64,000 nt of DNA, from the IMG/VR virus record IMGVR_UViG_3300021478_000022, positions 14,688 to 78,687 of that record; one strand, 5' to 3'. Of the stretch, positions 6,407 through 63,100 are shown piece by piece; position 1 is the stretch's first letter; each line of letters begins with the position of its first letter. The notes under the pieces were generated by a model. It saw only the letters and a list, made by a program, of their open reading frames with translations, searched no databases and was not told the origin of the DNA. The position numbers were made by a program, and so were the translations under genes. The DNA comes from a virus.

Positions 6407-7774
6407 TCACTTGTTCTCGTTGTCGACAATCGTGTCCACGATGGACAGTTCCAGGTCGCTACAGTGGGCCGGGAACGGGCTCTCCGGTGAAAACCGCACG
6501 TCCTTCACCAGATCGTCACCAGGCACCCGCTGGCCCGCATATTCCGGCCCCTTCGTCAGCACGTCCGGCTGCAACATGCGGATGGCCTCGATGGGTTCTT
6601 GAGCGCTGAACGTGACCACCCAGTCCACCGCTTCCATGCTCTCCAGTATCTGCACCCGCTCTCCCTCCGACAACACAAAATCCGCAGGGCGCAGTGACCG
6701 TGCCGATTCGTCTGAGTTCACCCCCACCACCAGCACGTCCCCCTGCTGCTTCGCCCAGCGCATCAGCCACGCATGTCCCGCATGGGCGCCCAGCCTGAAC
6801 ACCCCATTGGTGAACACGATGCGCTTACCCGGTAGGGACTCGCGCAGGTGGCGCAGGTCGGTGAAGTCGATGCGCTTGCTGCCGGTCATGTCCTTGCGGA
6901 CCTCGAATGGGTATGGCGGTCGATTGTGCTGGTGCTGCACGTAACAACGTCCTGCTGCGTGGGCCACCTGTGCGGCTTCTCCAAGTCCCAACCCGTGCGC
7001 TAGCCCAAGGACCAAATGCGCTGCGAAGCAATCGCCTGCCCCCACGTGGTTCCTGCAATGCACCGGCCCCGTCACAACAGGCTCAACAGTCCAGACGGAA
7101 TCGTCAGGCCAATGAATCGTCGGCACAAGTCCACCATGCGTCACGACACGTCGAATACCAAGCGTCTCCTTGTGGCAATCGTATTCACCATTGCACTTCA
7201 AGAGTGCCCCGTCGTATGTGATCGGCTTCTGCTTTGCGTCCGCCACCACAGGCATGCGCTGCACTGTGCATTCAGCGATGATGCGCTTTATCGTGTCGCG
7301 GTCCAAGAACCCCTTGTCGTAGTCCGAGATCAGCACCGCATCGAACCCCATCGTCCGCACGGCCTTCACGGTCAGGTCACGGATTTCGGTGAGTTCGGCA
7401 GTGGCCAATCCGTAGTTGGCTGACTCGTGGTCCCTCCGGAACACGATGCGGCCTGTTGCATCGTCGATGTAGCGGGTCTTGCGAATGTAATCGCGCGTGT
7501 GGTGGCAAAGACTGGCATCGAAAGCGGCGGGGTGCGAGCCGCGATGCCAAGACGCAATCAGGAAGGCATCCGCATTCCAGTGTGCCAACTGATGAGCAGC
7601 ATTCGCGGCACCACCCGGACAAACCGCCGACCGAGAAGCGATAAACTTCTGGCAGCCATCCTGAGATGGCTCAAGGCGACCGTGATAATACTCATCAACC
7701 ATCGCGTCGCCGATGACAGCGATCTTGAGCCGCTTCGCCCGGTCCCTCTCGGTCAGCTTCTGCACTGCGTCCAT
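6407..7774 (-). CDS. hldE: bifunctional heptose-7-phosphate kinase / heptose-1-phosphate adenylyltransferase (HldE/RfaE)
   Basis: PfkB domain (IAVIGDAMVDEY, PGGAAN, ISDYDKG, GAGD) fused to a nucleotidyltransferase domain (IVFTNGVF..HAGH, GDVLVVGVNSD, LQPDVLTKG). Confidence 0.9.
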   Translation of the reverse strand: MDAVQKLTERDRAKRLKIAVIGDAMVDEYYHGRLEPSQDGCQKFIASRSAVCPGGAANAAHQLAHWNADAFLIASWHRGSHPAAFDASLCHHTRDYIRKTRYIDDATGRIVFRRDHESANYGLATAELTEIRDLTVKAVRTMGFDAVLISDYDKGFLDRDTIKRIIAECTVQRMPVVADAKQKPITYDGALLKCNGEYDCHKETLGIRRVVTHGGLVPTIHWPDDSVWTVEPVVTGPVHCRNHVGAGDCFAAHLVLGLAHGLGLGEAAQVAHAAGRCYVQHQHNRPPYPFEVRKDMTGSKRIDFTDLRHLRESLPGKRIVFTNGVFRLGAHAGHAWLMRWAKQQGDVLVVGVNSDESARSLRPADFVLSEGERVQILESMEAVDWVVTFSAQEPIEAIRMLQPDVLTKGPEYAGQRVPGDDLVKDVRFSPESPFPAHCSDLELSIVDTIVDNENK

Positions 7775-7944
7775 TCTTCCTCCCTCTCGGCTCGCTCACG
7801 ACACTCACTGTGCTCCCCCTGCTGCACGCGCAGCCGGGGCAATGGTACATCAGGGGGCCAGTCCATCTGCTGCTCGGACAGGCCGATCACACGCTTGCAG
7901 TAGCGGCAGACGATCTTAACCCGCAGTGTTGCCGTTGGGCCCAT
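7753..7944 (-). CDS. hypothetical protein (CxxC)
   Basis: 63 aa, overlapping neighbours. Confidence 0.45.
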   Translation of the reverse strand: MGPTATLRVKIVCRYCKRVIGLSEQQMDWPPDVPLPRLRVQQGEHSECRERAEREEEWTQCRS

Positions 7945-8113
7945 ACTTGTCCTCCGGGATGTCTGCCGTCATTTCCAGTTTCCACCGCTTCACCACCCGC
8001 CTGCCGTCCACGTACAGCACCGGGAAAGACAGGCCGTCCTTGCCGATGCAGAACATCAGCGAGTAGTGGTGCATCTCACGCTGGAGGATCGGATGGCCGT
8101 CAACGGTTAGCAT
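7916..8113 (-). CDS. hypothetical protein
   Basis: 65 aa, overlapping neighbours. Confidence 0.45.
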   Translation of the reverse strand: MLTVDGHPILQREMHHYSLMFCIGKDGLSFPVLYVDGRRVVKRWKLEMTADIPEDKYGPNGNTAG

Positions 8114-8460
8114 AGCGCCCTCTTCAAGAGTTCAAACACGGCACCACTCTCGATGTCCTGTGGAGTGCATCGCAGCACCAGCCACCCTGCGAGCTGCGCC
8201 TCGTTCATCTTCTCCATGTCGCTGATGAAACCCTTACCGCGCACGTGCCTCCCGCTCGTCCACACCCCACCATCGACCTCCAACGCAACCCGTCTAAACG
8301 CTTCGTGGTAGTGCTGCCCCCAAGCAAAGTCGAACCGCCACTGCCTGACCTCGTGGAATCTTACCTCACGATCAGGCTTCTTTATCCCATGCGCCAAGCA
8401 CATCGCCTCGAACATGGGGTACGGTTTGCCGAAGGTCGTTTTCGCTCGTGCTGGCATCAT
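8107..8460 (-). CDS. PD-(D/E)XK endonuclease-like protein (Vsr/DUF559-like)
   Basis: EVRFH..RQWRFDFAW...VALEVDGG.W..GRH...DMEKMNEA...GWLVLR. Confidence 0.8.
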   Translation of the reverse strand: MMPARAKTTFGKPYPMFEAMCLAHGIKKPDREVRFHEVRQWRFDFAWGQHYHEAFRRVALEVDGGVWTSGRHVRGKGFISDMEKMNEAQLAGWLVLRCTPQDIESGAVFELLKRALC

Positions 8461-8813
8461 CCATCCCTCCGCACTTCCAACCCCCTGCGCGTCCGCAGCA
8501 GACGGTAGATTTCCAGTTCCACCTGCTCCGGTGTGCGCCCCTCACGTCCCGCCACAATCTCCAGCAACTTTGCCTTGGGCAGGGTCCCCGCCTCTGCCTT
8601 GATGTGGCAAGCGCAATCGAAGGCCGACCCCAGAGCGATGAGGTTGATGGGGATGTCTAGACGACTGCCACCGCCCAGCCCGCGCTTCTTGATGTGGTGC
8701 GGCTCACGACGACGGCAGGGCTTGCCGCAACCTTCGCATCGGCCGGGGCCTCGAAAGAGGTCGAGCATGGGTTCGTCTATGACGATCATCAGGCCCATCC
8801 TGTTCCGCCGCAT
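8457..8813 (-). CDS. HNH-like nuclease
   Basis: CxxC...EPHHI...D...NLIAL...CH. Confidence 0.65.
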   Translation of the reverse strand: MRRNRMGLMIVIDEPMLDLFRGPGRCEGCGKPCRRREPHHIKKRGLGGGSRLDIPINLIALGSAFDCACHIKAEAGTLPKAKLLEIVAGREGRTPEQVELEIYRLLRTRRGLEVRRDG

Positions 8814-8980
8814 TCGGGGCAGTCAAAACAAATACGACCGTTGCCTTCCCACGCACACGTCGTTTGCCCGGTGCCATCACAGAAGTCGCATTCGATCAGC
8901 ATTTCGTATTCTTCTGGTTGGTCGGGCGGGTCATCGTATTCCGGTGGACGCTCCCATGCCTCGTTCATTTCTTCCTCCAA
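8789..8980 (-). CDS. small Zn-finger protein (CxxCxGxG repeats)
   Basis: CDFCDGTG, CPECGGTG. Confidence 0.6.
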   Translation of the reverse strand: MEEEMNEAWERPPEYDDPPDQPEEYEMLIECDFCDGTGQTTCAWEGNGRICFDCPECGGTGWA

Positions 8981-9728: not shown

Positions 9729-11335
9729 GCGCGCTTTCGCCTCACGTACTGCGGGAACAACTCTGCCACAGGCGTTTTCCATTGTCCGCGTGCTGGCACG
9801 TTCGGCAGGTTCCGTACTTCCCACGGCATGACGCCAAACTCCTTCTTGAACATCTGCGCCGCCATGCCAGGAGTCCGCCCCATGTTCGCAGAAATGGCCA
9901 TGCACCTGTGCCATTCTCGCACCATAGCCTCATGCACCACCATTTCGTTCTCGCCGCCGCTGACCTCAACAAGCTGTCCGTTCTGCACGGCCTCCCTCTT
10001 GGCTTGCCTTGTTTGCTCGGACAGCTTGTGGCCGCAAGCCGGGCAAACCAGCCCGGAGAAGATGGCGTGGCACTTAGGGCAATGCACGAGACCTGCCCTG
10101 CCGTCCTTGGGCTTCACCCTGTCCTGTATCTTCTCCCCTTCCTTCAGTTGCCAGTCAATGTCAGCATCGGGAAGCCCGTGGACGTAGACATTCCCGGAAT
10201 GGTCAATCAGGATCGCATCGGTCTTGCCATCCGCTGGGCGTTGGATTCGTCCAGCACGCTGGCGGAACTTGACGTAGCTCTTGGTCGGACCAGCGTCGAT
10301 GCAGCACGAGGCGATGGGACAATCGTAGCCCAAGGTGAGCACGTTGCAGTTCACCAGGATCATCGTGTCGCCCATGCTGAACCGCTCCAAGATGGCGTCC
10401 CGTTCTTCGTCAGGCGTCTTGCCGTCGAGGTGCTCCGCTTTGATCCCGGCTGCGAGAAACTGGTCGCGAATGTGCAGGCTGTGCTCGATGCCGCTGGCAA
10501 ACGCTATCGTCTTGCGACCTGCCGCCAGTCGCTTCCAATGCTCCACGATGTCGCCCACCAACTTGGGCTGATCCATCCGCTTCTCTAGAGGTCGTGGCGC
10601 GTAGTCTCCAGTCGCCTTGGAGGTCGGCACGCCCTTTAAGTCCGGCCTGTAGGGGGCAAAGACCTTCGTCGGCACAAGGTAGCCGTCTGCAATCAGCTTG
10701 GACGTCGGCACGGCCTGCACCATCCCCTTGTAGGCCATGCCCAGCGGCTTACCGTCCCCGCGCGCCGGCGTGGCGGTCAAACCGATCACCACGGCATTGG
10801 GGAAATGCTTGAGGAGGAAGAACCACGTCTTACTCAGGCTCAGGTGGCATTCGTCCGCGATGATGAGGTCGAACGCTGGCAGCGGGATGGCTAGTTGCTC
10901 CAACCGCTGGATCTGCTCTCTGGCCTTTTCGGTGAAGTGCATCTCCAGATCGGTCGCCCCTTCAATCGCCTTCTCTATGGCTTTGATCCGGCCGGGCAGC
11001 CGGAAGGCACGCGAGATGAGCGTGTCCTTGCTGGCCACCTGCACCAGCTTGTCGAGATTGTAACCGTGGCCAGCCATGATGATGCCGTGCTCGACGTCGA
11101 ACCGGCTGAGCTTGTCCGAGCACTGGTGAATGAGTTCGCGGGACGGAGCCAGGAACAGGCAGCGCTTGCCCTTGTCGGCGCACCCCTTGATGAGCATAGC
11201 TGCCATCACCGTCTTGCCGGCCCCTGTCGCTGCTTGCAAGATGACCCACTTCTCCAGGCGCCGCTGGATCAAGTCGGCCAGAACCCGCCGCACCCGCTCG
11301 ACGGTATCGACCTGATAAAAGCGTGGGACGATCAC
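9725..11335 (-). CDS. superfamily 2 (DExH) DNA helicase with C-terminal Zn ribbon
   Basis: Q motif RFYQ, ATGAGKT, DECH, TAT, QRAGR, CPKC...CPAC. Confidence 0.92.
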   Translation of the reverse strand: MIVPRFYQVDTVERVRRVLADLIQRRLEKWVILQAATGAGKTVMAAMLIKGCADKGKRCLFLAPSRELIHQCSDKLSRFDVEHGIIMAGHGYNLDKLVQVASKDTLISRAFRLPGRIKAIEKAIEGATDLEMHFTEKAREQIQRLEQLAIPLPAFDLIIADECHLSLSKTWFFLLKHFPNAVVIGLTATPARGDGKPLGMAYKGMVQAVPTSKLIADGYLVPTKVFAPYRPDLKGVPTSKATGDYAPRPLEKRMDQPKLVGDIVEHWKRLAAGRKTIAFASGIEHSLHIRDQFLAAGIKAEHLDGKTPDEERDAILERFSMGDTMILVNCNVLTLGYDCPIASCCIDAGPTKSYVKFRQRAGRIQRPADGKTDAILIDHSGNVYVHGLPDADIDWQLKEGEKIQDRVKPKDGRAGLVHCPKCHAIFSGLVCPACGHKLSEQTRQAKREAVQNGQLVEVSGGENEMVVHEAMVREWHRCMAISANMGRTPGMAAQMFKKEFGVMPWEVRNLPNVPARGQWKTPVAELFPQYVRRKRA

Positions 11336-12207
11336 GGCATGGCCTCCAGTTCCACGTCTCTCCACTGCGGGACAAATCCGCAGTTCCTGCACTCCCCACA
11401 CCCTTTCCCTTCACACTTGCGATGCACGCAAAATGGCTTGCACAGACCAAGATGCCGTGCCGCCGTCTCTAGTGCCGGGACGATCTCGCTCAGGAGCGCC
11501 CACGGGTACAGTGTCTGATTGTTCTTGAGGTGCTTGACCCATGACTCCAGGCGATCAACGCAATCGCTCAGGAAGGGGTCGCCAAACGTGTCGCGGAGCT
11601 TCTTGGGCAAAGTGTAGCCCTTGGCGTCTCGCGCCTCCTCAGCGGCCTTCTGGGCGGTTTCCTCGGCCTCTGTAGGAGGTTCCCAGGATTCACCCGCATC
11701 GGGAGGAACGTGTACCTTTTTGGGTGCCTTTTTCGCCTTTTGGTGCACTCCGTTGGTGCCCACTACGGTGCCGTTTTTAGGCGCAGGTGCGCACCCCCCC
11801 TGCGCACCCACAAGTTGAAGATCATTACGTACTTGCGACTCGCTGATTTTTTCGGCTTTGGCGATAACCCGCAAGCTTTCGCCATTCCGTCGCCGCGCGG
11901 CTACTCGCTCAACCCGCGCCTGTTTTTCAGCGTCCGTTTGGTGCCTCCGGTCATCGTTCAGGCTTTCAGCCATCGCTATGGCTTCCGTCTCGGTGCCGAC
12001 AAAGTGAACCGTTGGGAATGTCTGACCCAATTCCCCACACAACTCGACACGATGCTTGCCGTCGATGCACCAGACTGAACCATCATTGGGGTTCTTCCAC
12101 AATACCACCGGCATACGGCACTGAAGTTTTTTGATGGAAGCCTTGAGCTTGGCTCGCTGCTGGGGAAGAAGTGGGTCAAACGTCGCGCAGATGGGGTGAA
12201 ACTGCAT
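11332..12207 (-). CDS. ParB-like N-terminal domain protein with HTH
   Basis: FHP...LKASI...PVVLW...IDGKHR...SLN..RRH; HTH SLRVIAKAEKISESQV. Confidence 0.7.
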   Translation of the reverse strand: MQFHPICATFDPLLPQQRAKLKASIKKLQCRMPVVLWKNPNDGSVWCIDGKHRVELCGELGQTFPTVHFVGTETEAIAMAESLNDDRRHQTDAEKQARVERVAARRRNGESLRVIAKAEKISESQVRNDLQLVGAQGGCAPAPKNGTVVGTNGVHQKAKKAPKKVHVPPDAGESWEPPTEAEETAQKAAEEARDAKGYTLPKKLRDTFGDPFLSDCVDRLESWVKHLKNNQTLYPWALLSEIVPALETAARHLGLCKPFCVHRKCEGKGCGECRNCGFVPQWRDVELEAMP

Positions 12208-14857: not shown

Positions 14858-16153
14858 TCACTCGACTTCGTGGGCTTCGACCGCAGCCGTCTGCTCTGGC
14901 ACCACGTCGTCCTTCCCGACCGGGATATTGACGGGCGCCGTGAACTGCACCTTCCGGCCGGCTGGGACCGCGCGGGTGAAGTTCAGGGTAAACAGCTTGG
15001 CAGACGGCGGTGTGCCACCACCTCCACCAGGGGGTCCGCCACCCGGAGGGGTGCTGCCGCTAACCAGAGCCGATACGAGCGTTCCCAAGGGCCTTCCCAG
15101 CCCGGTGCACGGATCTGGGCCTACAGTGGCGTTAAAGCCGCTGTTGTTGCCGCTGGTGATGTCCAGGAACGATCCTGTGTTGCTCCAGAGCAGGGGGTTC
15201 ATCTGGGCTATCATCGGCATCCCGATTTTGACTCTGGCCCCGTTGATGACACAGAAGAGCCCAGCGATCAGCGGTGCCACGGCAGAAGTCCCACCGATGG
15301 GTTCCCACTGACCATTAATCAGCACCATCCACCCCGTCGCTGGGTCAGCATTGGCGGCGAGGTCGGGGTCCATCAGCATGGTTCCCTGACTGTTCGGAAG
15401 CTGGTAGCTTGGTCGCGGGTAGAACTTGGAGAATCCCCCGCCCGTACCTTCACCGGGACCGTCGTTCCATACCGTCTCAGGACCTCCCAGCGGCTTGGAG
15501 GTGCCACCGCAGCCGGTGATGTAGGGGCTGCACGACGGGAAGTCGGTCGTTGGGCTGCCCTCGCCATCGTTGGCCAGGTTGTCGCCGGAAGCAGCCGTGA
15601 TGGGGAACGGGCAAGACTGGGCCGAGCTGTCGACGGCAGTGCGGTCGCTGGCGTTCCACTGGTCCTCCGGGCTGCCCCAACTCCACGAGAAGGCGCCGAC
15701 CTTGAGACCGAGTGTCTGCGAGGCATAGTCTTGGCAGTCCGCGAACGCTTGCCCGCTGTTGGGACCATAGACGATGAGAATGTTGGCTGGCGTCCCGGTC
15801 ATGTAGGACCAGACCGCTGCCGCCAACTGCCAATCGAGGGCCACCTCGCCATCAGCATCAGACGAAGAATCGTCGGCACCGGGCAACAGATGGGTCTTGA
15901 CGGTCGGTGCCGCGAACCCCGTCTTGGCGGACCACTCAGCAAGGTCGGCTGGGTAGAACTTGCCGCCCAGTTCCCCGATCACGATGGTCAATGGCGTGAC
16001 TGCCGTCCCGGTAGGCCAGTTGTATGCCTTGAGCAGATCGGCGGGGTAGTAGGGCTGCGAGGCGGCATGCGGTCGCCTGATCTGGGTATTGGCGAACCGG
16101 CGGATATGGGACTTGGCGAATGGCGTGCTCAATTCAGGCTCCTTGTTAGGCAA
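14858..16153 (-). CDS. S53 (sedolisin/kumamolisin-like) peptidase without pro-domain
   Basis: EVALD (Glu/Asp of the triad), AASGD oxyanion, GGTSAVAP nucleophile, Ca-site DPCTGLG. Confidence 0.9.
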   Translation of the reverse strand: MPNKEPELSTPFAKSHIRRFANTQIRRPHAASQPYYPADLLKAYNWPTGTAVTPLTIVIGELGGKFYPADLAEWSAKTGFAAPTVKTHLLPGADDSSSDADGEVALDWQLAAAVWSYMTGTPANILIVYGPNSGQAFADCQDYASQTLGLKVGAFSWSWGSPEDQWNASDRTAVDSSAQSCPFPITAASGDNLANDGEGSPTTDFPSCSPYITGCGGTSKPLGGPETVWNDGPGEGTGGGFSKFYPRPSYQLPNSQGTMLMDPDLAANADPATGWMVLINGQWEPIGGTSAVAPLIAGLFCVINGARVKIGMPMIAQMNPLLWSNTGSFLDITSGNNSGFNATVGPDPCTGLGRPLGTLVSALVSGSTPPGGGPPGGGGGTPPSAKLFTLNFTRAVPAGRKVQFTAPVNIPVGKDDVVPEQTAAVEAHEVE

Positions 16154-23198: not shown

Positions 23199-23807
23199 TT
23201 ATTCCCGCTGCGTCCAGAACATCACCTCACGCATCAGACCGAGCCCATCCACCGTGGATTCCGCCTGAACCTCCCGGTCAACGATCCGGTGCCCCGCCGC
23301 TGCGACGGCGCGCTCCAGGTGATCCCCGGTGAGGTAGACGTGGTGGAACTCGGTGCCGTTGTCGTGGTCCCTCTCGGCGATCTGCATGTCGAAGCAGCCA
23401 AAGCGCCCGTGGGAGAGCAGCTTGGCAAGGATCTGGTCCCACTCGTGCAGCCCGAAGTTCTTGAGGAAAAAGAAGGCGCAGGAGAGGTCAGGTTCAAAGG
23501 CAAAGCAAGAGATAAGGCGGATGTCATCGTGCCAGAACTGGTGGGCGCGTGTGTCGTTTCTCACCCTTGCCTTTCCCCAGAAATACTCGTTTTTCTCCAC
23601 TCCCACATAGCGCACGTGACATGGCATCCCCTTGGCCACCAGCCCCACCCCACACCCGAACTCCACGACACTCTCGACCTTCTCTCGCTCCATCCGGGGC
23701 AAGAGGAACCGCAGGTGCACCTTGGCGGACTGGTTGAGCAGCCACGTCACCTCCTCGGCCATGGCGCGCTCCTTCGTGTACCAACAGCTACTGTCCGGTA
23801 GAGGCAT
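23199..23807 (-). CDS. class I SAM-dependent methyltransferase
   Basis: VVEFGCGVG, YVGVE, DDI. Confidence 0.8.
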   Translation of the reverse strand: MPLPDSSCWYTKERAMAEEVTWLLNQSAKVHLRFLLPRMEREKVESVVEFGCGVGLVAKGMPCHVRYVGVEKNEYFWGKARVRNDTRAHQFWHDDIRLISCFAFEPDLSCAFFFLKNFGLHEWDQILAKLLSHGRFGCFDMQIAERDHDNGTEFHHVYLTGDHLERAVAAAGHRIVDREVQAESTVDGLGLMREVMFWTQRE

Positions 23808-23965
23808 GTTGAATCGTCCTCCAGCACAAATGAAGCGGCAGCATGGGAAGAAGGCAAACCCACACATCCCAGCGATGCCACCAGTTTTCGTCTGGCGAAA
23901 AGTGCGGTCTGCCCTCGATGGTCATTTTCCAGAAGACGCCGACCCAGCAATCTTGCGGCTTAAAC

Positions 23966-24145
23966 TCAAGGCGAACCGTCACGGTGCCTCCTTGCCACTC
24001 GGCGTTTGACTTCTTCCATCGCCACATGCAAGTCTCGCCAGTCCTCTTCGGCCCAATCCTTGGCATCGCGTGGCAATCCCTCGTCCGTCCAGCGCTTGGC
24101 GTACTCACGCTTTGTTTTCTTTCGCTTCATTCCGTTCTCTGGCAT
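23966..24145 (-). CDS. hypothetical protein, paralog of 8965-9210
   Basis: EGLPRDAKDWAEEDWRDLH. Confidence 0.6.
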   Translation of the reverse strand: MPENGMKRKKTKREYAKRWTDEGLPRDAKDWAEEDWRDLHVAMEEVKRRVARRHRDGSP

Positions 24146-24283
24146 GGGACCTCTCCTCGCAGGCTTCCACGTTCTCCACGGCCTCCCTGAGCAGGCACAG
24201 GCCACACCGCTCGTGAGGGGACCAGCACCAGCACCGCTGCTCAGCAAGGACGCGCTTGGCCGATTCGAGAAGCGCGGAGGCCA

Positions 24284-24640
24284 TCAGGCGGTAGTTGGGA
24301 CGGGACATGGTTGTTCCTCCAGCCACAGGATTTTCTTGCCTTTGTTCAGCGCGTGAGCTAGTTCGCTGCGTGTCGATTCGCCCACGTACCCGCCGACGTT
24401 CAGAATCAGCACTTCGTCGGCCAGGTCGATTTTGTCCTTGTGCAAGGCATCCAGAGCGATCTTTTGCTCAAGAGTGCAGCCGAATGCCTCGCCGTGGGTT
24501 TCTCCAGCAGCGTGCGGGTAAAAGCCAACGGACAGCACGATCTTGCCAGCCATCGTCTGGCGATAGTTCGCTTCTTGGAATGCCTTCCAGAAGCGAGTCG
24601 AGCCACAGAGACAGACAATCGTTCGTTTCACTTCAGCCAC
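24284..24640 (-). CDS. nucleoside deoxyribosyltransferase-like (DUF4406-like) protein
   Basis: VCLCGSTRF...KIDLADEV...GYVGESTRSE. Confidence 0.65.
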   Translation of the reverse strand: MAEVKRTIVCLCGSTRFWKAFQEANYRQTMAGKIVLSVGFYPHAAGETHGEAFGCTLEQKIALDALHKDKIDLADEVLILNVGGYVGESTRSELAHALNKGKKILWLEEQPCPVPTTA

Positions 24641-26506: not shown

Positions 26507-26514
26507 GACTTGGA

Positions 26515-44119: not shown

Positions 44120-44129
44120 ATGCCATTCC

Positions 44130-48285: not shown

Positions 48286-49712
48286 GCCGCCCTCCTGATG
48301 CGCCACGCAATCTCTTTGATCCGGTCAGGCAATGACCCCAGACTGAACCCTTGCGACTGCATCGGCAAGGGGCCAGTTGGCTGCGTGTCGGGAGCGGCGC
48401 CCGGCGCTATGGGCATCGGTTGCCCCGGTGCCTGATTCATGGCCTGCGCCGGGTCCTGACCCATCTGCGTCTGCCGCTTCGTCTGGAGCAGCGGCTTGAC
48501 CTTGCACTCGAACCGCACCTCCCCGTACCGCCACCGCACCAGCGGACGCAGGACTTGCTTCAGGAACAGCGTCAACATCGCATCCGCCAAGCGCTGCTGG
48601 AGCATCAGGAACCCTTCGAGCGGGATGGCGCGACCGCTATAGCCTGACCCCGATTCCGCCGCCTCGAACAACTCAGACGGCACCCCGATGCCCTCGCGGA
48701 TTTGCTTGATGAGGTACTGGATGTACTCGATCAACCCAGCGACGTTCAGGGTGTTCTTGGGGATTTCGACCGACCACTTCTCCCCACCGCCCTGATCGGA
48801 CGGGTAGGGCGTTGACGGCAGACCAATGCCGGCCCCAGCCTTGAACAACTCCGCCATCTGACGTGCCGAGTCGCGAGCGTACTTCCGTGGTCGCCCTTGC
48901 GAGTCCAGCGTGGTCGCCACCGACCCCAGTTGCCCCTGAATGTCCTCTTCCGGGTACTTCACCACCACCCCGGAGTAGGCGAACCGATAGATACCTCCGT
49001 CCACCACCGTTTCCGCTGCGTCCTTCCACGCCAGACGCCTCCACGGGCGCCAGGCGCCTAGTAGTTGGCTTTGCCCGTAGTAGAGGCTGTAGCGTGGATT
49101 GTGGGCGTACCAGACACCCTTCGCGGGGATGTCCTCCGTCGCCATCCACAGGTCCCTCGTTCCACCGTGCTGCTGGTTGTCCGAGGCTGGGTTCTGGGGA
49201 GGTGGCGCTTCCCGTGGCGCCTCGTGGATTTGCCTGACCCTGACCCCAATCGGTTTGTTGCTTTGGGTGAGCAGGAACACGTCCCGTGGGGAGAACTGCA
49301 CGAAGTCCTCCCACTCGAGGGTCGGTCCTTCGCCCTTGTAGAGCGCCTCGCAGCCGATCCAGCCGTACTCGTAACCTCCCTGGAGTTTCGGCACGCCCCG
49401 GTCCCAGAAGCGCTGGCACTGTTCCTGAATGAAAATCTGCGCTTCGGGGTGGTCGCAGGAGATGACGAACTCAGCCCCGGCGATGCCGCCCTTGAAATAG
49501 TTGAGCGCGTTCAGAACCACCGGATGGATCATCATGAGTTCGATGTCGCGCAGCAGGTAGAACTGCGGCACCGTGTCGGTCGTCCACAGCGCCCAGTAGG
49601 GCAAGGTGGGACGGTAGCCGGTGGTCAGGGGCTCGCCGGTCAGGATCGACTCGATCTTGGCCTTGTCGACCTGACCGTTCTGTTGCCCGTTCATGGGTGT
49701 GGCTTCGGTCAT
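48282..49712 (-). CDS. portal protein (Mu gp29/DUF935-like)
   Basis: YG...CE..Y, YG.S.L...WRPW, V.KYP, L..Q...PL..W.YG; 476 aa; adjacent to MuF. Confidence 0.7.
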   Translation of the reverse strand: MTEATPMNGQQNGQVDKAKIESILTGEPLTTGYRPTLPYWALWTTDTVPQFYLLRDIELMMIHPVVLNALNYFKGGIAGAEFVISCDHPEAQIFIQEQCQRFWDRGVPKLQGGYEYGWIGCEALYKGEGPTLEWEDFVQFSPRDVFLLTQSNKPIGVRVRQIHEAPREAPPPQNPASDNQQHGGTRDLWMATEDIPAKGVWYAHNPRYSLYYGQSQLLGAWRPWRRLAWKDAAETVVDGGIYRFAYSGVVVKYPEEDIQGQLGSVATTLDSQGRPRKYARDSARQMAELFKAGAGIGLPSTPYPSDQGGGEKWSVEIPKNTLNVAGLIEYIQYLIKQIREGIGVPSELFEAAESGSGYSGRAIPLEGFLMLQQRLADAMLTLFLKQVLRPLVRWRYGEVRFECKVKPLLQTKRQTQMGQDPAQAMNQAPGQPMPIAPGAAPDTQPTGPLPMQSQGFSLGSLPDRIKEIAWRIRRAA

Positions 49713-50005
49713 GTCACTTCCCCTGCGGTTATGTTCCCGTGCCAGCACGGCGTCTGAATCATGGGAGGGTATATAGCGCCCGAAGCATCGACTGACGGAT
49801 GGAGAGTCATGGTATCGAATGTCTCGCCAGCCCTCACCCACCAGAAGCCGTTCTTGCTACTCATCTTCTCCCCACCGTCGACAGGGTTGGCGAAAGGGAC
49901 AGCGAGCCGGTGCTCGCGATGGATCGGGCATTCGAAAGATATGCCCTGCCCGTGGCGACCAAGCGTATCGCAAGTCCAGTGCGGGTCAAGTTCCGTAAGC
50001 CTCAT
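49709..50005 (-). CDS. DUF6527-like protein (second copy)
   Basis: F.CP.H...W...TL.PS...CWHG.I..GEV. Confidence 0.65.
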   Translation of the reverse strand: MRLTELDPHWTCDTLGRHGQGISFECPIHREHRLAVPFANPVDGGEKMSSKNGFWWVRAGETFDTMTLHPSVDASGAIYPPMIQTPCWHGNITAGEVT

Positions 50006-56961: not shown

Positions 56962-57149
56962 CACTTTGCCTCCCTGAAAGCAAGGGCGCCTCCAGCGCAG
57001 TCCAGTAGATGGTGGTATTGATCGCGGAATTTCGCTGCCGCTTCCTGCCACTCGGACGACTCGTTCTTCCAGTTGCCATTGCCAGCCGAGCAGATGATCG
57101 TCCACCCAAACTCGACTAGATCAACCAACTCTTTCTTTTCCATGCTCAC
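56961..57149 (-). CDS. hypothetical protein
   Basis: 62 aa, coupled. Confidence 0.5.
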   Translation of the reverse strand: MSMEKKELVDLVEFGWTIICSAGNGNWKNESSEWQEAAAKFRDQYHHLLDCAGGALAFREAK

Positions 57150-57946
57150 AACCGCCCCCTCTGCAAGAGATACAGCACAATGTCCACCAGCCCGTACACA
57201 CCCTGTTCAGTGATGTCGCGCCACCAATTTTGGGGCCAGCGTGAAGGTTCGGGCCACAGTCGCCTCTGCGGTAGTCTACCCGGTATCCCCCGGTGGTGGG
57301 TAGCGGCAAATTTCCGATTGGTCCCCACGATCACCTCGCCCCTCCCCAAGTCGAACACCTGATTCTCCACCTTGGGCGGCGCCGAGAGGGCCTGCTGCCC
57401 CACCACGACGCCCGGAGACAGGGAATTGAGCAAGAGCCCCTTGTCGCGCAGGATCTCCACCTTGGTGCCGCCATACTCGCTCAGCAGCGTCTTGGCGCCT
57501 TCCCGCTTCAGCACCATCCACGCAATGGCAGCGCCCCACCCTCTGGGCGCCCCGCGCGCGTGGTAGGGGGCGCCAGCAGGGGCCCGTCCCCCGACCGAGC
57601 GGTAGACGCTCCACCAGCGGGCGCGTTGTTCCTTCGTCAGCATCCACGAGGGAGCGAAGGGAGCGCGCAGCTTGCCGGGGAACAACACCCCCGGATGGCG
57701 GCGTGAGTAGGCTATGGTCGTCTTCTTGAGGGGTGGCCAGCGCAGCCCCGACTCGTCCGAACCACCGCGCGCCTTGGCGATGAAGGCTGTGCGGATGCGT
57801 CCGAGCAGCGCCAGTCCCATGCGAATGAGCAGCGCCTGCTGGAGGCCGGCGGCGGACTGACCGTGACCGGAGGCGATGGCGGGGACTTGCCGCAGGATGG
57901 CGAGTACCTGCTCGCGGGTGGCGCGGACGTGGATGGTGATGTTCAA
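57146..57946 (-). CDS. virion morphogenesis protein (Mu gpG-like)
   Basis: G.RWPPL...T, IL.D.G.L..SL, VGTN..FA..H..G...LP.R. Confidence 0.8.
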   Translation of the reverse strand: MNITIHVRATREQVLAILRQVPAIASGHGQSAAGLQQALLIRMGLALLGRIRTAFIAKARGGSDESGLRWPPLKKTTIAYSRRHPGVLFPGKLRAPFAPSWMLTKEQRARWWSVYRSVGGRAPAGAPYHARGAPRGWGAAIAWMVLKREGAKTLLSEYGGTKVEILRDKGLLLNSLSPGVVVGQQALSAPPKVENQVFDLGRGEVIVGTNRKFAATHHRGIPGRLPQRRLWPEPSRWPQNWWRDITEQGVYGLVDIVLYLLQRGRL

Positions 57947-60900
57947 GGTGTCAACACCTGGAAATTCGAGTAGGTCATGGTGGCATTGACGTTGTTCCTT
58001 ATTCCGGCCCCAGTCGCAGTGTTCAGGTCGGCGCTGGTGAAGGTGCAGCCGGACACCGCTGCACCGTTGTAGTAGACCTGAAACACGTTTCCCACGACTT
58101 TTAGCTCCAGCGTCTCATTCGTGCTGCCAGCAAAGGTTATCGCCCCGTTGGGTCCTCTCTGGGTTGCGACTCCCGCCAGTACCTCGAAAATGGCAACCGT
58201 GGTCGTCGAAGTGACCACCGCCAGCCAGTAGTTGTTGAGGTCCTGTACCCTTGCCGCGACACCGGGGAAAGCCGACGTCGAGCCATTGACTGTAGCCGAG
58301 ACGTCCATGTCCGGCTGAGTGGCGTTGCCAATGGCCAAGCAAACGCCAGCAGTTGTAGGGACACAACCACCAGAGCCGTTCGTCGTGAAGTCGCCGGACA
58401 GGTCCGTCCAGTTGCCGCCCACATTCATCGGACGAGCGGTGATGCTAACCCCATTGCTTCCTGCCATGAGATCCTTGAGCAGGACAACCAGATAGGGCAC
58501 CTTCAACTCGGCAGACTGCGGACCCGTCACGCCTCCACCCACCGCAGCGACCTTGTAGTAGTAGGTGGTGTTGGCGGCCACCCCGGCATCGACGTAGCCC
58601 GCCGATGGAGAGGTGTCGTACTGGACCTCGTTTCCTGGCGTCGTGCTGCGGTAGATGATGTAGCTGGTGGCGTTGGTGACTGCCGGCCAGACCAGCGTGA
58701 GAGTCGGCGAGGTCGCGCTGCCTGTCACCTGGAACGGCGCCAGCAGCCCCGCTTGCGGGACAAACGGCCACGATAATCCTGCTCCGCTATTCCACCTGAT
58801 CGCTATGCTGGCGGCAGTCGCCGTCGCGTTGTAGATGCCAACCTCGTCCATTGTGCCAGTCAATTCATTGCCGCCACCGACGAAACTTCCCAGGGTCAAG
58901 GGCGCTGTTCCCGTAGCAGGCAGTGCCGCCGGGATGGTGCCTGCGAACGTCAACGTTTGCAGGATGCCGTTGATGTAAACGGCCAACCGACCGGCGTTAC
59001 CTGTGCCGGCGCCATTGAAAACGATGCAGATGTAGTAGGGCGTGCCCTGAACTGGGCTAAAGACCGTCTCCGCATAGGTTCCGGTGTCCGAAACGCTGGT
59101 GGGAATGTTGATGCGGAACTTGCCCGTATCTGAGCCACGGTACTGGAACAAAAAAGTCAAATTTGTCGAAAGGAAGTCTCCAACGCAGACGATGCCGCTC
59201 GTGATGGTCGTGTCATTAACCCTGACGAAAGTGTCGACCGTCAGAGCCGTGGCACCGTCTAAAACGGTTGGGTGGGCAGTTGAGAGATAATCGGCTGGGC
59301 TTGCCCCAGCAAGGAATATGCAACCCTTGTTGATGAAGCCTATGGCCTGCGTCACGTTGCCGTTCACGGTCAGCGTATGTCCGTTGCCGCTGCTATCGAT
59401 GGTGAGGGAATCGAACGCATAGTATGCCACGAGATTGGTCAGCAGCGGTGAGCTACCCGTGAACGATTGCGTTTCAGCAGACCTCGGACCCTCTACTCCT
59501 GCGCTGTTAACTGCGGTGACTTGGTAATAACCTGCCCCGGCACTGCTGAGATAGGTGTTAGTCGTCACGTTGCTGGCCAGCAGAGTTTCGCTTCCGGGCG
59601 TGGCGCCGTAGTAGACGTTGTAAGCCACATCGCCCACACCGGAGTTCCAGGACCACTTGACCAGGATATTCGCGCCGCTAGTAGCTGCCACTACGCCGGT
59701 TGGGGCTGCTGGAGTGGTGAGAGCAGCTTGGCCGAATGTGTTGTCCAGCACGCCGCTTGGACTGAAGCGGGCCAAGAAAATGGCCGTGATGTAGCCGATG
59801 GCGGACGTGTAGCCAACGGTCCCCACGATGACGATGTTGCCACTGGCATCGAGCTTGAAACTGTTCAGGACCGAGGTTATCCCAGCGCCGTACACGCCGA
59901 CTGCCGGGTAATAAGTGAGGATGCCGCCCGTGCCGAAGGTGGCGTCCAAAGTGCCATTGTCCGTCCCGCCCGTCACCGAGGCGTTGTAGCGGCAGATCGC
60001 AATACCGTAGTTGGGGTTGGCGCCGGACACGACCAGCACCGAGCCTCCGACCAGGAGACGGCTGGCCGAGTCGAGAGCGAGCATGGAGGAGAAGGACAGG
60101 TTATTCAGCCCCACCGTCGTAGTCACGACACCGTTTGTCCCCCAGGTGTTGTCAGGGGTGCCGGTGGACGACCAGCGCATCACGGTCCAGGTGCCGTTGA
60201 CACCGTTCGTCGACACGTAGCCCGTGGCGTAGATTCTGCCGTTTGCGTCCTCGGCCAGCGCTTTGCCGGCCATCGCGCCGAAAGACCCTTGATTATTAGG
60301 AAGGCAAGGAGCGCCGCTGCCGGAGGCCAAGCCCACCCAGAAACTTCCTATGGTGGCTAAACCGGCAGTATTATTGTTGCCCACGAGGACGATGCCGCCC
60401 GTTCCGAAGGTGGTGTCCAAGGCTCCAGTGCTTGTCAACTGGGCAAGAGCCCAAGAGGTGTTATTTCTCTGAGCGTAAGCCTGGAAATACGGCTGCACGC
60501 CACCTATCCCGGCATTGGGCGGAACGTTCCAGGTATTCGGGGCAATGGCAGAGCAGCCGCCAATCAAGATTTTGCCACTGGCGCGCACGAGGACGCTTGT
60601 AGCGGTGTCCACTCCATTTCCTGGAACCCCTGTGAGGCGAAACGCTTTGCCGCCCCCGCCGGAGGCTGCACCGAAGCCGAACGCGACCGACCCGAAGGTG
60701 GTGTCGATGTCTCCGGTCGGCTTGTAGCGGATGCAGGCGAAAAAGGCGTCCTGAGTCGTGTTGATGCACCGAGCCTGCGTCCAGCCCACTGCCACGATGT
60801 TGCCACTGGCATCAATGTCAAAGTCGGAGACCATCCCAGCGATGGTTCCATCGAACGAGTTGCCCAGCGCCACAGGACTACCAGAACTGGACGAAGAAGA

Positions 60901-61737
60901 ACTACTGGACGAGCCGAACCAGCTTATCATCGGGAAGCCGGCGCGCCCCTGCATCCCGGTCGTGTTGGCTGCGTTGAACGTCGTGTCCAAGACCCCGGCC
61001 GAGGTGTAGGCGTCCACGCTGTAGCTGTTGAGCATATAGACGTTGATCGGGATGCCGGAATTGGCCCCGACCGCCGTATGCGGAGTAGGAGATGACCCCA
61101 GTTGCCCACGAACGATAGTCCAGTTCGTTCCCCCACCGTAGGAGGTCGCCTGGAAGAACTCTATTGCCCCGAGGCCGGCATCGCCGCCGTCATTGAAGTA
61201 CCAATTGGAAGGGGTAGGAGGCAGGAACGTCGCGAGTCCCGTACCGAACACCGTCGCTGTCACGGTGATCGAAGTGGCGCCAGCCGTCAGAGGGTCGGTC
61301 GAAAGGTAAGGGATGCTCCGCACGCCGCAAGAGCGGGTGCGCAGACAGGTCAGGATACGACCGCTGGGCAAAGCAACGATTCGACCGTAACCTCCGTAGG
61401 GCTGGTCGTTCAGCGAGTTCGTCTGGTACAGATAGCCGGCGCCGGCAGCGAAGGTCGTGTCGAGTTTGGAGCCATTGGCCGTGTAGCGGAACAGTGTGGC
61501 AACGTCCGATGGCGTTTCGATCCCAAAGCCGTTGGCGACGTAGCCGCTCACCACGATCTTGCCATCGGTGGGCTGGATGGCCAGATCGTGCGCGACGATG
61601 TAGGTGAAAGGCGAGTTGGACCCCAACCCTGCGAGGGTAAGACCGGCGGGGGAGGGCTGGACGAAGAAACCAGCGGCGAGGGCGGGTGGCGCTGGTGTCA
61701 CTGATTTCTTCAGGGTCTCTATCAGCGCCACGTTCAT
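57943..61737 (-). CDS. large fibre/adhesin: delta-60-type beta-propeller + FN3 + LamG + FN3 + lectin-like C-terminus
   Basis: Seven G.LD.TF-type repeats, IQPTDGKIVV, YNVYY/YYQVTAV FN3, LVAYY...GTMDEVGIYN LamG, poly-Ser insert. Confidence 0.8.
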   Translation of the reverse strand: MNVALIETLKKSVTPAPPALAAGFFVQPSPAGLTLAGLGSNSPFTYIVAHDLAIQPTDGKIVVSGYVANGFGIETPSDVATLFRYTANGSKLDTTFAAGAGYLYQTNSLNDQPYGGYGRIVALPSGRILTCLRTRSCGVRSIPYLSTDPLTAGATSITVTATVFGTGLATFLPPTPSNWYFNDGGDAGLGAIEFFQATSYGGGTNWTIVRGQLGSSPTPHTAVGANSGIPINVYMLNSYSVDAYTSAGVLDTTFNAANTTGMQGRAGFPMISWFGSSSSSSSSSSGSPVALGNSFDGTIAGMVSDFDIDASGNIVAVGWTQARCINTTQDAFFACIRYKPTGDIDTTFGSVAFGFGAASGGGGKAFRLTGVPGNGVDTATSVLVRASGKILIGGCSAIAPNTWNVPPNAGIGGVQPYFQAYAQRNNTSWALAQLTSTGALDTTFGTGGIVLVGNNNTAGLATIGSFWVGLASGSGAPCLPNNQGSFGAMAGKALAEDANGRIYATGYVSTNGVNGTWTVMRWSSTGTPDNTWGTNGVVTTTVGLNNLSFSSMLALDSASRLLVGGSVLVVSGANPNYGIAICRYNASVTGGTDNGTLDATFGTGGILTYYPAVGVYGAGITSVLNSFKLDASGNIVIVGTVGYTSAIGYITAIFLARFSPSGVLDNTFGQAALTTPAAPTGVVAATSGANILVKWSWNSGVGDVAYNVYYGATPGSETLLASNVTTNTYLSSAGAGYYQVTAVNSAGVEGPRSAETQSFTGSSPLLTNLVAYYAFDSLTIDSSGNGHTLTVNGNVTQAIGFINKGCIFLAGASPADYLSTAHPTVLDGATALTVDTFVRVNDTTITSGIVCVGDFLSTNLTFLFQYRGSDTGKFRINIPTSVSDTGTYAETVFSPVQGTPYYICIVFNGAGTGNAGRLAVYINGILQTLTFAGTIPAALPATGTAPLTLGSFVGGGNELTGTMDEVGIYNATATAASIAIRWNSGAGLSWPFVPQAGLLAPFQVTGSATSPTLTLVWPAVTNATSYIIYRSTTPGNEVQYDTSPSAGYVDAGVAANTTYYYKVAAVGGGVTGPQSAELKVPYLVVLLKDLMAGSNGVSITARPMNVGGNWTDLSGDFTTNGSGGCVPTTAGVCLAIGNATQPDMDVSATVNGSTSAFPGVAARVQDLNNYWLAVVTSTTTVAIFEVLAGVATQRGPNGAITFAGSTNETLELKVVGNVFQVYYNGAAVSGCTFTSADLNTATGAGIRNNVNATMTYSNFQVLTP

Positions 61738-62261
61738 CGAAGGCCCAGACTCTTAACCTTGATGGAGCACAGGACGGCCGCCGCCAGCGCCCCGCTGGAT
61801 GCCGACGAAGAGGACGAGCCGCCCGCCGGCACGGTCTTGCCCACAAACCTCACCCGTCCCCCCAGAGGGAACTGGTTGGCGAAAGCAGCCGATGGCGCCG
61901 TGCCGACCGTCCGCGCCTGCTGGATGGCAATGGCGCCAGCCGCTCCACCGGACAGCACCCACGTTTGCGAAGTGCCAGTAGTGACGATCGCGGGGAATCC
62001 CGCCACGTCGACCCAGTTGTTGTCCCCCATGTCGGTCTGCATGATGACGTAGGTGGCCTGACCAGCACCGAGGTTGCCCTGCGTCGTCAGCACCACCACG
62101 GCGGTCATGGCGCAGTCATAGAGCACGGCAAGGGGGTCGCCTTCGGGAGCGTTGGCGTTGCCGTTGGCCAGGTCGCCTTCGGCAGCGGGGACGGGCATGT
62201 TGAGGGCGTACTGCACCCCGTCGATGCTGGGCGACTGCTGGGTACTGGCAAAGACGACCAT
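61734..62261 (-). CDS. putative virion protein with C-terminal Ser tract
   Basis: Beta-sandwich pattern; GGSSSSSASSG. Confidence 0.65.
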   Translation of the reverse strand: MVVFASTQQSPSIDGVQYALNMPVPAAEGDLANGNANAPEGDPLAVLYDCAMTAVVVLTTQGNLGAGQATYVIMQTDMGDNNWVDVAGFPAIVTTGTSQTWVLSGGAAGAIAIQQARTVGTAPSAAFANQFPLGGRVRFVGKTVPAGGSSSSSASSGALAAAVLCSIKVKSLGLR

Positions 62262-62274
62262 GATGCCCCCAATG

Positions 62275-62310
62275 AAAAAAGGCCCGCCCGTTGTGAGCCA
62301 CGGACGGGCC
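62275..62310 (-). terminator. intrinsic terminator
   Basis: GGCCCGTCCG/CGGGCGGGCC stem followed by TTTTTT. Confidence 0.75.
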
Positions 62311-62338
62311 TAGCGCGACCGAACCGACGAACCGAGAC

Positions 62339-63100
62339 TTAGGCGGCGATGATCTCAGCGCAGATCGACGTCGCCAAGGCCAAAGCGCCACCGGCGCCCG
62401 ACGAACCGGAGGAGGTCGCGGACGGCGACGCCAGAACAATGTTCATCTGGTTGCCCGGTGTGCCGACGATGCCGCCACCGGAAACGCCAGGAGTGTTGGA
62501 GTCGCTGGGCAACGGGATGTTCAGGGGGCCCGTGTTCTGGCCGATGAGGTCCATCTGCCATGTGACCGTTCCTGGGAGTACCGGGAACTGTCCGTCAACG
62601 ACCTGTAGCACCGGCTGCGAGGCCCAGCCTGTGGGACCGCCCACGGCTGTAATGACGAGCGATCTGACCCGCCATGCCCGGTTGGCCTGCGCGGGGATGT
62701 TGAGGATGTTCTGCCCACCGCCCAGCTTGTAGGAGGACGGCCACTTCTGCTGCGGAGTCAGGAACGCATCCTGCCACGAGGAGTCGATGGCCGTGGCCAT
62801 CACCACCGTCACCGCACCAGCCGGGCCCAAGGTCGTGACTTGCACGCGCATGGCCACGAAGTCGAGCACCGGCGTCTCGAAGTTTCCCGTCGCCGTCGTG
62901 GTCGACTGCCCGGACGAGAACGGGAAGATGTTGACGTTGATCGGGATGAAGTTGAGCCCGTCCGTCGAGCCGAAGAACGAGACCGTCGTGCCGGCACCCG
63001 ACAACGCTGGAATCCCGATCCCTACCTTTGCCATCCCGCCACAAAAAATTGTAAGGGACTGGGTGGCGTTGTTCAGCACCTCACGGATGATTGTCGCCAT
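62339..63100 (-). CDS. putative virion protein with C-terminal Ser tract
   Basis: F.GSTDG.NF, ...MRVQV beta-sandwich; SPSATSSGSSG. Confidence 0.65.
   Translation of the reverse strand: MATIIREVLNNATQSLTIFCGGMAKVGIGIPALSGAGTTVSFFGSTDGLNFIPINVNIFPFSSGQSTTTATGNFETPVLDFVAMRVQVTTLGPAGAVTVVMATAIDSSWQDAFLTPQQKWPSSYKLGGGQNILNIPAQANRAWRVRSLVITAVGGPTGWASQPVLQVVDGQFPVLPGTVTWQMDLIGQNTGPLNIPLPSDSNTPGVSGGGIVGTPGNQMNIVLASPSATSSGSSGAGGALALATSICAEIIAA

Follow-up and report, generated by a model that had tools for sequence, protein, structure and literature searches.

A candidate phage system for glycosylating serine runs on virion proteins, with GT9-type glycosyltransferases and an HldE-like enzyme

The DNA considered here is a 64,000-nucleotide stretch, hereafter called the window, which comprises bases 14688-78687 of one 78,687-bp virus record in IMG/VR (IMGVR_UViG_3300021478_000022), rated complete by CheckV. 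The genome is that of a phage with a guanine-plus-cytosine (GC) content of approximately 60%, and its minus strand holds nearly every gene. The window contains a gene for an HldE-like enzyme, a cluster of glycan genes with four GT9-type glycosyltransferase domains, and a set of predicted virion proteins that carry tracts of serine. We propose that these may belong to one system by which the phage glycosylates the serine tracts of its own virion. The genes that concern this proposal are listed below, in window coordinates as throughout unless a position is marked as genome.

6407-7774, minus strand: HldE-like bifunctional sugar-phosphate kinase/nucleotidyltransferase of 455 amino acids, the proposed supplier of ADP-heptose
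24628-26506, minus strand: tandem GT9 (two GT9 domains in one protein), separated from its first 13 codons by a 7-nt stretch with a TGA
31961-32821, minus strand: compact 286-residue GT9-like glycosyltransferase by predicted fold, the fourth GT9-type domain
38928-40226, minus strand: lead GT9 enzyme with a Cys-rich beta N-domain and a GT9 core with the motif SPGD, the proposed initiating protein O-glycosyltransferase
40181-40879, minus strand: Cys-rich tip protein that has 12 Ser within a short stretch of 36 residues
40880-41920, minus strand: protein with an anchor domain, a CC pair, a Ser-rich region (66 Ser in about 156 residues) and a Cys-rich tip
41922-42875, minus strand: protein with an anchor domain, a CC pair, a serine run (8 Ser in 10) and a LamG-like tip
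42875-44182, minus strand: candidate tail hub or baseplate protein, encoded ahead of the anchor proteins
57943-61737, minus strand: 1264-residue protein with beta-propeller-like repeats and FN3 and LamG-like parts, with ten Ser at residues 276-285
61734-62261, minus strand: 175-residue neck-module protein with 7 Ser in 10 at residue 147, near the C-terminus
62339-63100, minus strand: protein of 253 residues that has a Ser/Gly stretch near the C-terminus (6 in 10 at residue 225)

An earlier note, made from the letters of the window alone, had reported serine tracts in at least six predicted structural proteins. The six that it listed are all present, the one in 40181-40879 being weak (only 5 Ser in 10), and a seventh lies beyond the window at genome 6346-7641. 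Among 74 curated proteins of this genome, tracts of at least 6 Ser in 10 are found in proteins of the virion-building modules only, and none occurs in a replication or glycan-cluster protein. The large protein 57943-61737, as well as 61734-62261 and 62339-63100, is encoded between the head-tail adaptor and Neck1/tail-completion genes, and 62339-63100 adjoins the head-tail adaptor gene (63110-63952). The three proteins next to the lead GT9 gene are related by their parts: an N-terminal anchor domain of 90 residues that ends in the CC pair is common to 41922-42875 and 40880-41920, whose tips differ, and a motif of the tip that follows the serines is shared by 40880-41920 and 40181-40879 (E 1e-5). 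The structural identity of several of the tagged proteins is drawn from gene position and weak leads. The ESM Atlas gives structure leads, to be taken as leads only, from the tip of 41922-42875 to viral Laminin_G_3-type proteins (template modelling (TM) score 0.57) and from 42875-44182 to hubs of the gpD, gp44 and VgrG types (TM 0.53-0.59 over approximately 310 residues). The former is probably a tail fibre or receptor-binding protein and the latter probably a tail hub or baseplate protein; as leads, the two would agree with tail-tip fibres. Serine runs both here (60883-60912) and in loci L002-L034 of other phages interleave TCN and AGY codons and have no single-codon repeat. This argues for selection on serine itself, with slippage-prone DNA avoided, rather than for a DNA repeat.

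The lead GT9 enzyme matches the Pfam model of the family (PF01075, Glyco_transf_9) at 39.6 bits, above the gathering cut-off of 22. Its first 119 residues contain 11 Cys, and this N-terminal extension is seen in the close group; in an alignment of 24 homologues the SPGD motif and four C-terminal Cys (C376/C382/C401/C414) are invariant. As the earlier note had stated, the gene overlaps the end of the block of three Ser-rich genes, by 13-46 nt with 40181-40879 depending on the start codon. The scores against the lipopolysaccharide (LPS) heptosyltransferase equivalogs of NCBIfam (WaaC, WaaF, WaaQ) reach at best 39 and 33 bits, where the cut-offs are 134-569. TibC, a soluble enzyme of the GT9 fold that provides the precedent for protein O-heptosylation (PMC4358343), is the top Foldseek match of the lead enzyme (E 1e-11), and among the top structural matches all solved enzymes with a known donor use ADP-heptose. 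A profile of the 24 homologues searched against the PDB returned no TibC chain at E <= 1. The comparison with GT9 and TibC that had been called for thus places the enzyme in the GT9 family and the GT9 fold and finds no sequence similarity to TibC.

The four GT9 domains with GD motifs that had been counted before hold up: three pass Pfam, and the fourth is recognized by its predicted fold only. The tandem protein (24628-26454 as an open frame) matches PF01075 in two stretches at 54.3 bits, again against the cut-off of 22, and the motif of its second domain, QGIGD, is at residue 312. The interruption of its first domain is real: a 7-nt stretch, GGCTGAA, carries an in-frame TGA and splits the motif as HGLG|GD (26452-26523). 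Homologues in four relatives (L003, L006, L011 and L014) have HGLGD intact in an open frame, and therefore the interruption is a mutation or an assembly error rather than a conserved recoding site. The compact protein 31961-32821 fails every Pfam and NCBIfam sequence model, PF01075 included, and gives a weak profile-profile match; its assignment to GT9 comes from the predicted fold, to which GT9 enzymes are the sole matches. It has the motif LHGD, of which G23 and D24 are invariant in its family. The GT9-type domains have a GT-B fold nearest to solved GT9 structures.

The full-length bifunctional HldE that the earlier note had placed at 6407-7774 is borne out, though it is divergent. Bifunctional HldE is the top full-length NCBIfam match (130 bits, E 9e-38; cut-off 521), with rfaE_dom_I over residues 12-192 (E 5e-21, 75 bits against a cut-off of 345) and rfaE_dom_II over residues 316-425 (E 3e-29, 102 bits against 181.5), and the Pfam families PfkB and CTP_transf_like also match. 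The catalytic motifs of both domains are present, GAGD (as VGAGD) in the kinase and HAGH in the transferase; an unusual insertion precedes HAGH, and the C-terminal STT-type motif is altered. Because the scores are far below the curated cut-offs, we describe the protein as HldE-like, that is, a divergent HldE-type enzyme with a putative specificity. Homologues are present in all five close relatives of this phage. Across the CheckV-complete genome no GmhA (SIS), GmhB-type HAD phosphatase or HldD-type epimerase was found, and so the absence of the three enzymes, first noticed in the window, now extends to the whole genome.

Relatives of the lead GT9 are numerous in environmental viral sequence. 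Its metagenomic homologues form more than 120 clusters at E < 1e-99, several of them on contigs of 73-82 kb, and a profile search of IMG/VR gave 38 loci of the clade on contigs of 10-548 kb with a GC content of 33-68%. Single-sequence locus searches with the lead GT9 and with the hub candidate 42875-44182 returned no related loci. The clade has no match in 50,697 GenBank phage records, and among 185,579 prokaryote species genomes (one per species) it has just two loci, one of which is a 6.7-kb contig of a Gemmataceae metagenome-assembled genome. The clade is therefore essentially viral. A search of GenBank phage records with the portal protein also found no relative; since the searches with both portal and lead GT9 were empty, this phage has no cultured relative in that collection. 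Its hosts are probably Gram-negative, with Gemmataceae as a lead.

The close relatives number five, on contigs of 58-79 kb from IMG/VR (L002-L006 and L188), and all of them have the GT9. Proteins with the anchor domain are encoded upstream of GT9 in L002-L005 and L188. In L002-L005 these anchor-CC-serine proteins are directly upstream of GT9 and contain up to 42% Ser over 435 residues, and all four of the close relatives whose GT9 locus extends to the tail-hub genes have them in this place. The hub candidate 42875-44182 is likewise kept upstream of the anchor genes in four relatives, and an alignment search with its homologues found only those four known relatives, none without GT9. The genome G005 has a different arrangement, in which the glycan cluster is on the opposite strand and convergent with the anchor gene. 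Both in G005 and in L005, a serine tail (8-16 residues) forms the very end of an anchor protein, and no domain lies beyond it. The runs are therefore not merely linkers, because in some proteins they stand at the end and join nothing.

A wider comparison gives the same picture. Open reading frames (ORFs) were called in the loci by a simple longest-ORF rule, and a serine-run ORF was defined by at least 8 Ser in 10. In 40 GT9 loci (GC 33-68%) there are 26 serine-run ORFs among 824, of which 16 lie no more than 4 kb upstream of GT9, all on the same strand. They make up 9.8% of the ORFs in the 2 kb closest to GT9 on the upstream side and 0-2.7% outside the two nearest upstream bins. The control set of 72 unrelated viral loci (607 kb) has 3 among 727 ORFs, probably frame artefacts; this amounts to an approximately 8-fold enrichment in GT9 loci (p = 4e-5, loci treated as independent). 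Within the same genomes, a serine-run ORF occurs in 10 of 20 GT9 loci and in 2 of 20 distal 20-kb regions (p = 0.014, likewise). The co-occurrence of hldE, GT9 and serine-run genes that the earlier note had suggested for a check therefore stands for GT9, upstream of which the serine-run ORFs cluster, and only partly for HldE, which is encoded by 11 of the 38 GT9-bearing viral records, including the five close relatives. This scarcity implies that most GT9-bearing phages must depend on the donor pool of the host.

HldE-type genes, where they are present, tend to adjoin GT9. In G005 the HldE gene is directly adjacent to the tandem GT9 gene and oriented towards the anchor-serine gene, and in L004 and L036 a gene for rfaE domain II is less than 2 kb from GT9. 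Locus L024, from a phage with 35% GC, encodes in order a serine-tailed cement protein, a capsid protein, rfaE domain II (172 bits; cut-off 181.5), rfaE domain I (182 bits), GT9 and GT2 (L024:6509-11645), and judged from its genes it is an independent compact copy of the trio of HldE, GT9 and serine tag. The tagged proteins of L024 and L031 belong to the cement or decoration proteins of the capsid (PF09956, phrog_122, phrog_1731), and their C-terminal tails contain up to approximately 100 Ser. Capsid-module and tail proteins that end in long serine tails are also found in G022.

G022 is a complete 71-kb phage in which seven proteins with long serine runs are encoded more than 15 kb from GT9 (L179:4032-19982, contig 9-25 kb). 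Among them are a capsid-module protein of 339 residues and small proteins that end in approximately 25-40 serines followed by 'SST'. From this gene arrangement, it seems that the link between serine and GT9 can be genome-wide rather than local.

The association was also examined from the opposite side, by scanning viral contigs for 12 consecutive TCN codons. The scan told little, since among the 80 loci obtained, 61 encode poly-Asp/Glu on the other strand and only 8 are true poly-Ser. None of the poly-Ser loci has GT9 inside it, and GT9 is found elsewhere in one of the six records that could be searched.

The remaining genes of the glycan cluster, which extends over 23199-40226, are the following.

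23199-23867, minus strand: protein with a weak methyltransferase match (Methyltransf_23, E 8e-4), encoded where the cluster ends distally and kept in the clusters of L002, L003 and L188
26849-28009, minus strand: sugar C-methyltransferase-type protein with a zinc-binding N-domain (PF08421, PF13489, and PF08484 with E 1.6e-30), with a 47% identical homologue in the L003 cluster
28006-29663, minus strand: two ORFs with homologues in L003 and L006, 28006-29085 with no assigned function and 28926-29663 with a weak Methyltransf_24 match
30232-31281, minus strand: GT-B glycosyltransferase (Glyco_trans_1_2 / GT47-like; Pfam E 2e-6 and 6e-6), a paralogue of 32818-33777, with homologues in L002 and L006
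31278-31960, minus strand: S-adenosylmethionine (SAM) methyltransferase (Methyltransf_11 and Methyltransf_23, residues 169-280 of an ORF listed to 32294)
32818-33777, minus strand: GT-B glycosyltransferase (Glyco_trans_1_2 / GT47-like; Pfam E 4e-10)
33800-34309, minus strand: Methyltransf_24 methyltransferase (Pfam E 1.3e-13)
35109-36026, minus strand: radical SAM/SPASM enzyme by weak Pfam and NCBIfam matches, with a 63% identical homologue in the L006 cluster
37227-38369, minus strand: weak GT2-like glycosyltransferase (PF00535, E 1e-3), with homologues in L006 (50%) and L002 (38%)

The cluster thus holds, beside the four GT9-type domains, two GT47-like GT-B enzymes, a GT2-like enzyme, a C-methyltransferase, three or four other methyltransferases and the radical SAM/SPASM enzyme. 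A simple and crude hydrophobicity test detected no membrane segment in any of the enzymes, and flippase-, polymerase- and ligase-type families are absent from the Pfam matches of the cluster. A surface-glycan pathway that works on a lipid carrier was considered and set low on these two grounds. A homing endonuclease gene of the NUMOD4/HNH_3 type is inserted within the cluster at 29660-31003.

The virion and packaging genes that frame this region are as follows.

Genome 35-1249: major head protein
Genome 2156-2950: head decoration protein
Genome 10602-12155: large terminase
Window 46054-48306: MuF-like minor head protein
Window 48282-49841: portal
Window 57146-57946: Neck1/tail-completion protein
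Window 63110-63952: head-tail adaptor

The order of these genes is unusual for a tailed phage, for the portal and MuF genes (window 46054-49841) are far from the large terminase (genome 10602-12155), the gap being filled on one side by tail, neck and head genes and on the other by glycan, lysis-like and replication genes over approximately 40 kb. A second HNH-type homing endonuclease gene, HNH/endonuclease VII-like, is situated between the head decoration and major head genes (genome 1255-2328), so that two operons are interrupted in this way. A gene for a C5 cytosine DNA methyltransferase adjoins the large terminase (genome 9820-10605); it matches profile positions 1-168 of 324 and may be truncated or split. 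Between the genes for the MuF minor head protein and the putative tail hub is one for a 643-residue protein of the FAD amine-oxidase family (window 44130-46061), whose position is kept in L005 and L188 (56-57% identity), with a short match at that place in L004; its role within a virion operon is unexplained. Furthermore, the ORF 14858-16153 (431 residues) has a weak match to subtilase (S8) and a 56% identical homologue near GT9 in the distant locus L021.

Taken together, these genes suggest the following course of events, in which the serine runs would be glycosylated before or during virion assembly. The HldE-like enzyme 6407-7774 would raise the ADP-heptose pool, with the GmhA and GmhB steps provided by the host. 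The lead GT9, translated right after three tail proteins with serine tracts, would add the first sugar, most likely heptose, to the serines. The tandem GT9, the compact GT9-like enzyme, the two GT47-like GT-B enzymes and the GT2-like enzyme would extend the glycan, and the methyltransferases and the radical SAM enzyme would decorate it. Tail-tip fibres and neck proteins would thereby acquire a brush of glycan, and such a coat may serve in shielding or adhesion. The earlier note had read the locus as a virion heptosylation system. GT9, serine runs and, in part of the phages, HldE are indeed located together, and the families, the runs and their conserved co-location across phage lineages are observed directly. 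The GT9 family and fold, together with the neighboring rfaE-type genes, point to heptose as the donor sugar, and the methyltransferase genes of the cluster suggest that the glycan is methylated; serine as the acceptor and the order of the steps are what we infer from the arrangement as a whole.

We put the probability of the full proposal, a soluble cytoplasmic system with which the phage O-glycosylates the serine runs of its virion proteins from a heptose donor, at roughly 0.5. That the cluster glycosylates the serine runs of virion proteins with some sugar is a safer statement and, in our opinion, a likely one. The broadest form is more tentative and we hold it at somewhat short of an even chance: a widespread and nearly phage-restricted GT9 clade would heptosylate poly-Ser tags on cement, capsid-module, neck and tail-fibre proteins, with HldE added by some phages, and other transferases and methyltransferases would build a mucin-like brush upon them, and this would constitute a general and portable system of tag and enzyme in phages of Gram-negative hosts, from 45-kb genomes to jumbo phages of 550 kb.

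A number of observations weigh against the proposal. The phage is uncultured, and its glycan is a predicted one. The HldE of this genome falls far below the NCBIfam equivalog cut-offs and sits 17 kb off the glycosyltransferase cluster, amid replication genes; across the clade an HldE-like protein is encoded by a minority of records, and by just 2 of the 10 complete ones. The structural match of the lead GT9 favors TibC no more than it does the LPS heptosyltransferases. The GT9 family of CAZy also includes N-acetylglucosamine (GlcNAc) transferase activity, and thus the family alone leaves the donor sugar unfixed. In this genome the tandem GT9 has an interrupted first domain. As for the serine runs, most of those in the window sit between domains, as plain flexible linkers would, approximately half of the GT9 loci are without a serine-run ORF within 10 kb, and of the six viral records with true poly-Ser that could be searched, five are without this GT9, so poly-Ser is not exclusive to this system. 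Finally, the loci compared share ancestry to an uncertain degree, and p-values that treat them as independent overstate their independence.

Some of these points are shared by other explanations. The serine runs could be ordinary linkers or spacers of fibres, with the cluster and the HldE-like enzyme remodeling a glycan of the host envelope (the LPS core or a different polymer of the surface), perhaps as a block to superinfection or so that progeny do not stick to debris. The characterised LPS-core members of GT9 do act on lipid A-Kdo, HldE is itself an enzyme of the LPS-core pathway, and both the interdomain position of most runs in the window and the poly-Ser of viruses without this GT9 would agree with it. 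We nevertheless consider this unlikely: the clade is nearly absent from bacterial genomes, its gene follows serine-run virion genes repeatedly, directly and on the same strand, the serine tails that end some proteins link nothing, the cluster is devoid of membrane-associated or lipid-carrier enzymes, and the lead GT9 has extra Cys-rich modules absent from WaaC and WaaF. It is also conceivable that the cluster glycosylates the serine runs from a donor other than ADP-heptose, while the HldE-like enzyme has a separate task, for instance the activation of some other sugar phosphate or a change in the LPS supply of the host. The divergence of this enzyme (130 bits where 521 is the cut-off), its distance from the cluster, the lack of HldE in most GT9-bearing records and a C-methyltransferase of the kind that acts on nucleoside diphosphate keto-sugars would suit such a donor. 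It is rendered quite unlikely by the rfaE-type kinase and adenylyltransferase genes beside GT9 in L024, L004, L036 and G005, and by the ADP-heptose that the top structural matches with known donors have in common.

Two further explanations place the glycan elsewhere. The radical SAM/SPASM enzyme, the C-methyltransferase and the several methyltransferases are typical of natural-product tailoring, and the cluster might make a free glycoconjugate or small molecule as an auxiliary metabolic pathway unrelated to the virion; yet no scaffold-forming enzyme was recognized in it and its conserved synteny is with virion genes, which makes this very unlikely. The glycosyltransferases might alternatively hypermodify phage DNA with sugars, heptose included. 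Phage GT-B enzymes together with sugar-activating enzymes are known to do so, and in one case a kinase-like enzyme and a cytidylyltransferase partner the enzymes that add heptose to 5-hydroxymethylcytosine (Pyle et al., bioRxiv 10.1101/2023.12.21.572611); a fragment of a C5 cytosine methyltransferase is also at hand at genome 9820-10605. The clusters of Pyle et al. need, however, a methyltransferase and a TET-like dioxygenase to form 5-methylcytosine and 5-hydroxymethylcytosine, and their transferases resemble the T4 beta-glucosyltransferase and not GT9. A TET/JBP dioxygenase was not found in the complete genome (PF12851, E <= 0.1), the methylase covers half its profile, and the cluster is tied to structural genes and not to the methylase. 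We set this explanation low because of the absent TET/JBP, and the chance we leave it is very small.

If glycosylation of the serine runs from a heptose donor is correct, virion glycosylation and protein O-heptosylation would be joined in one system. Glycans on virions have been demonstrated in mycobacteriophages and giant viruses, and protein O-heptosylation is, to our knowledge, known for a few bacterial adhesins only. Our literature search did not turn up any account in which GT9-type enzymes, a phage HldE and poly-Ser tags on the virion work together. The present genome adds a full phage HldE and four GT9-type domains in one cluster, and its relatives add minimal proteins of anchor plus serine tail and the L024 cassette. 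Many environmental phages, jumbo phages included, would then carry a serine-run tag with a dedicated sugar-coating enzyme. They would tap, and sometimes top up, the LPS-precursor pool of the host; E. coli, for one, makes ADP-heptose. Poly-Ser in phage structural proteins, currently dismissed as low-complexity linkers, would have to be re-annotated, and the enzyme and tag would make a compact pair for glycoengineering.

Several known systems resemble the one proposed. WaaC, WaaF and other GT9 enzymes (PF01075; PDB 2GT1, 1PSW, 3TOV) share with the phage enzymes the family, the fold, the xGD motif with its presumed catalytic Asp and the nucleotide-binding helix of the C-lobe. The phage clade differs in being far below the LPS equivalog cut-offs, virus-specific and equipped with Cys-rich modules, and its partners are virion proteins rather than LPS genes. 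In the serine-rich repeat (SRR) adhesins, dedicated soluble GT-B enzymes, encoded beside their substrate, act in the cytoplasm to O-glycosylate long Ser-rich repeats, after which other transferases extend the glycan. The enzymes there are of the GT4 type and GlcNAc is the first sugar; SRR proteins are thus served by another enzyme family, and they are exported bacterial adhesins rather than virion proteins.

The mycobacteriophages offer the nearest parallel on the side of the virion, where phage glycosyltransferases are encoded near structural genes and glycans are placed on tail-like extensions of capsid and tail proteins. Virion glycosylation in these phages is reportedly the subject of work by Freeman and colleagues in Cell Host Microbe in 2023, and we know of no description of their enzymes as GT9. 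A further source, which cites that work, gives the capsid and tail-tube proteins of mycobacteriophages as glycosylated at their C-termini (PMC12619734). In the present genome, as in mycobacteriophage-type virion O-glycosylation, glycosyltransferases are encoded beside structural genes with Ser-rich stretches, and relatives have cement and capsid-module proteins that end in serine tails. Unlike the mycobacteriophages, this phage has its own donor-pathway enzyme, the poly-Ser is pure and often very long, and the hosts are probably Gram-negative.

On the side of the enzyme, the closest counterpart is the bacterial autotransporter heptosyltransferase family, that is, TibC and AAH (PDB 4RAP/4RB4; PMC4358343). 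Both systems have a soluble enzyme of the GT-B/GT9 fold and a hyper-modification of serines with ADP-heptose in the cytoplasm, which for the phage is our proposal. TibC and AAH form a dodecameric ring and heptosylate the serines of autotransporters, of which the phage genome encodes none. An extra beta-rich N-terminal domain stands ahead of the catalytic core in both TibC and the lead GT9, and each has four Cys late in the C-lobe (Cys339/342/358/370 in TibC, where they form an inserted iron finger, and C376/C382/C401/C414 in the lead GT9), whose positions are similar and putatively equivalent.

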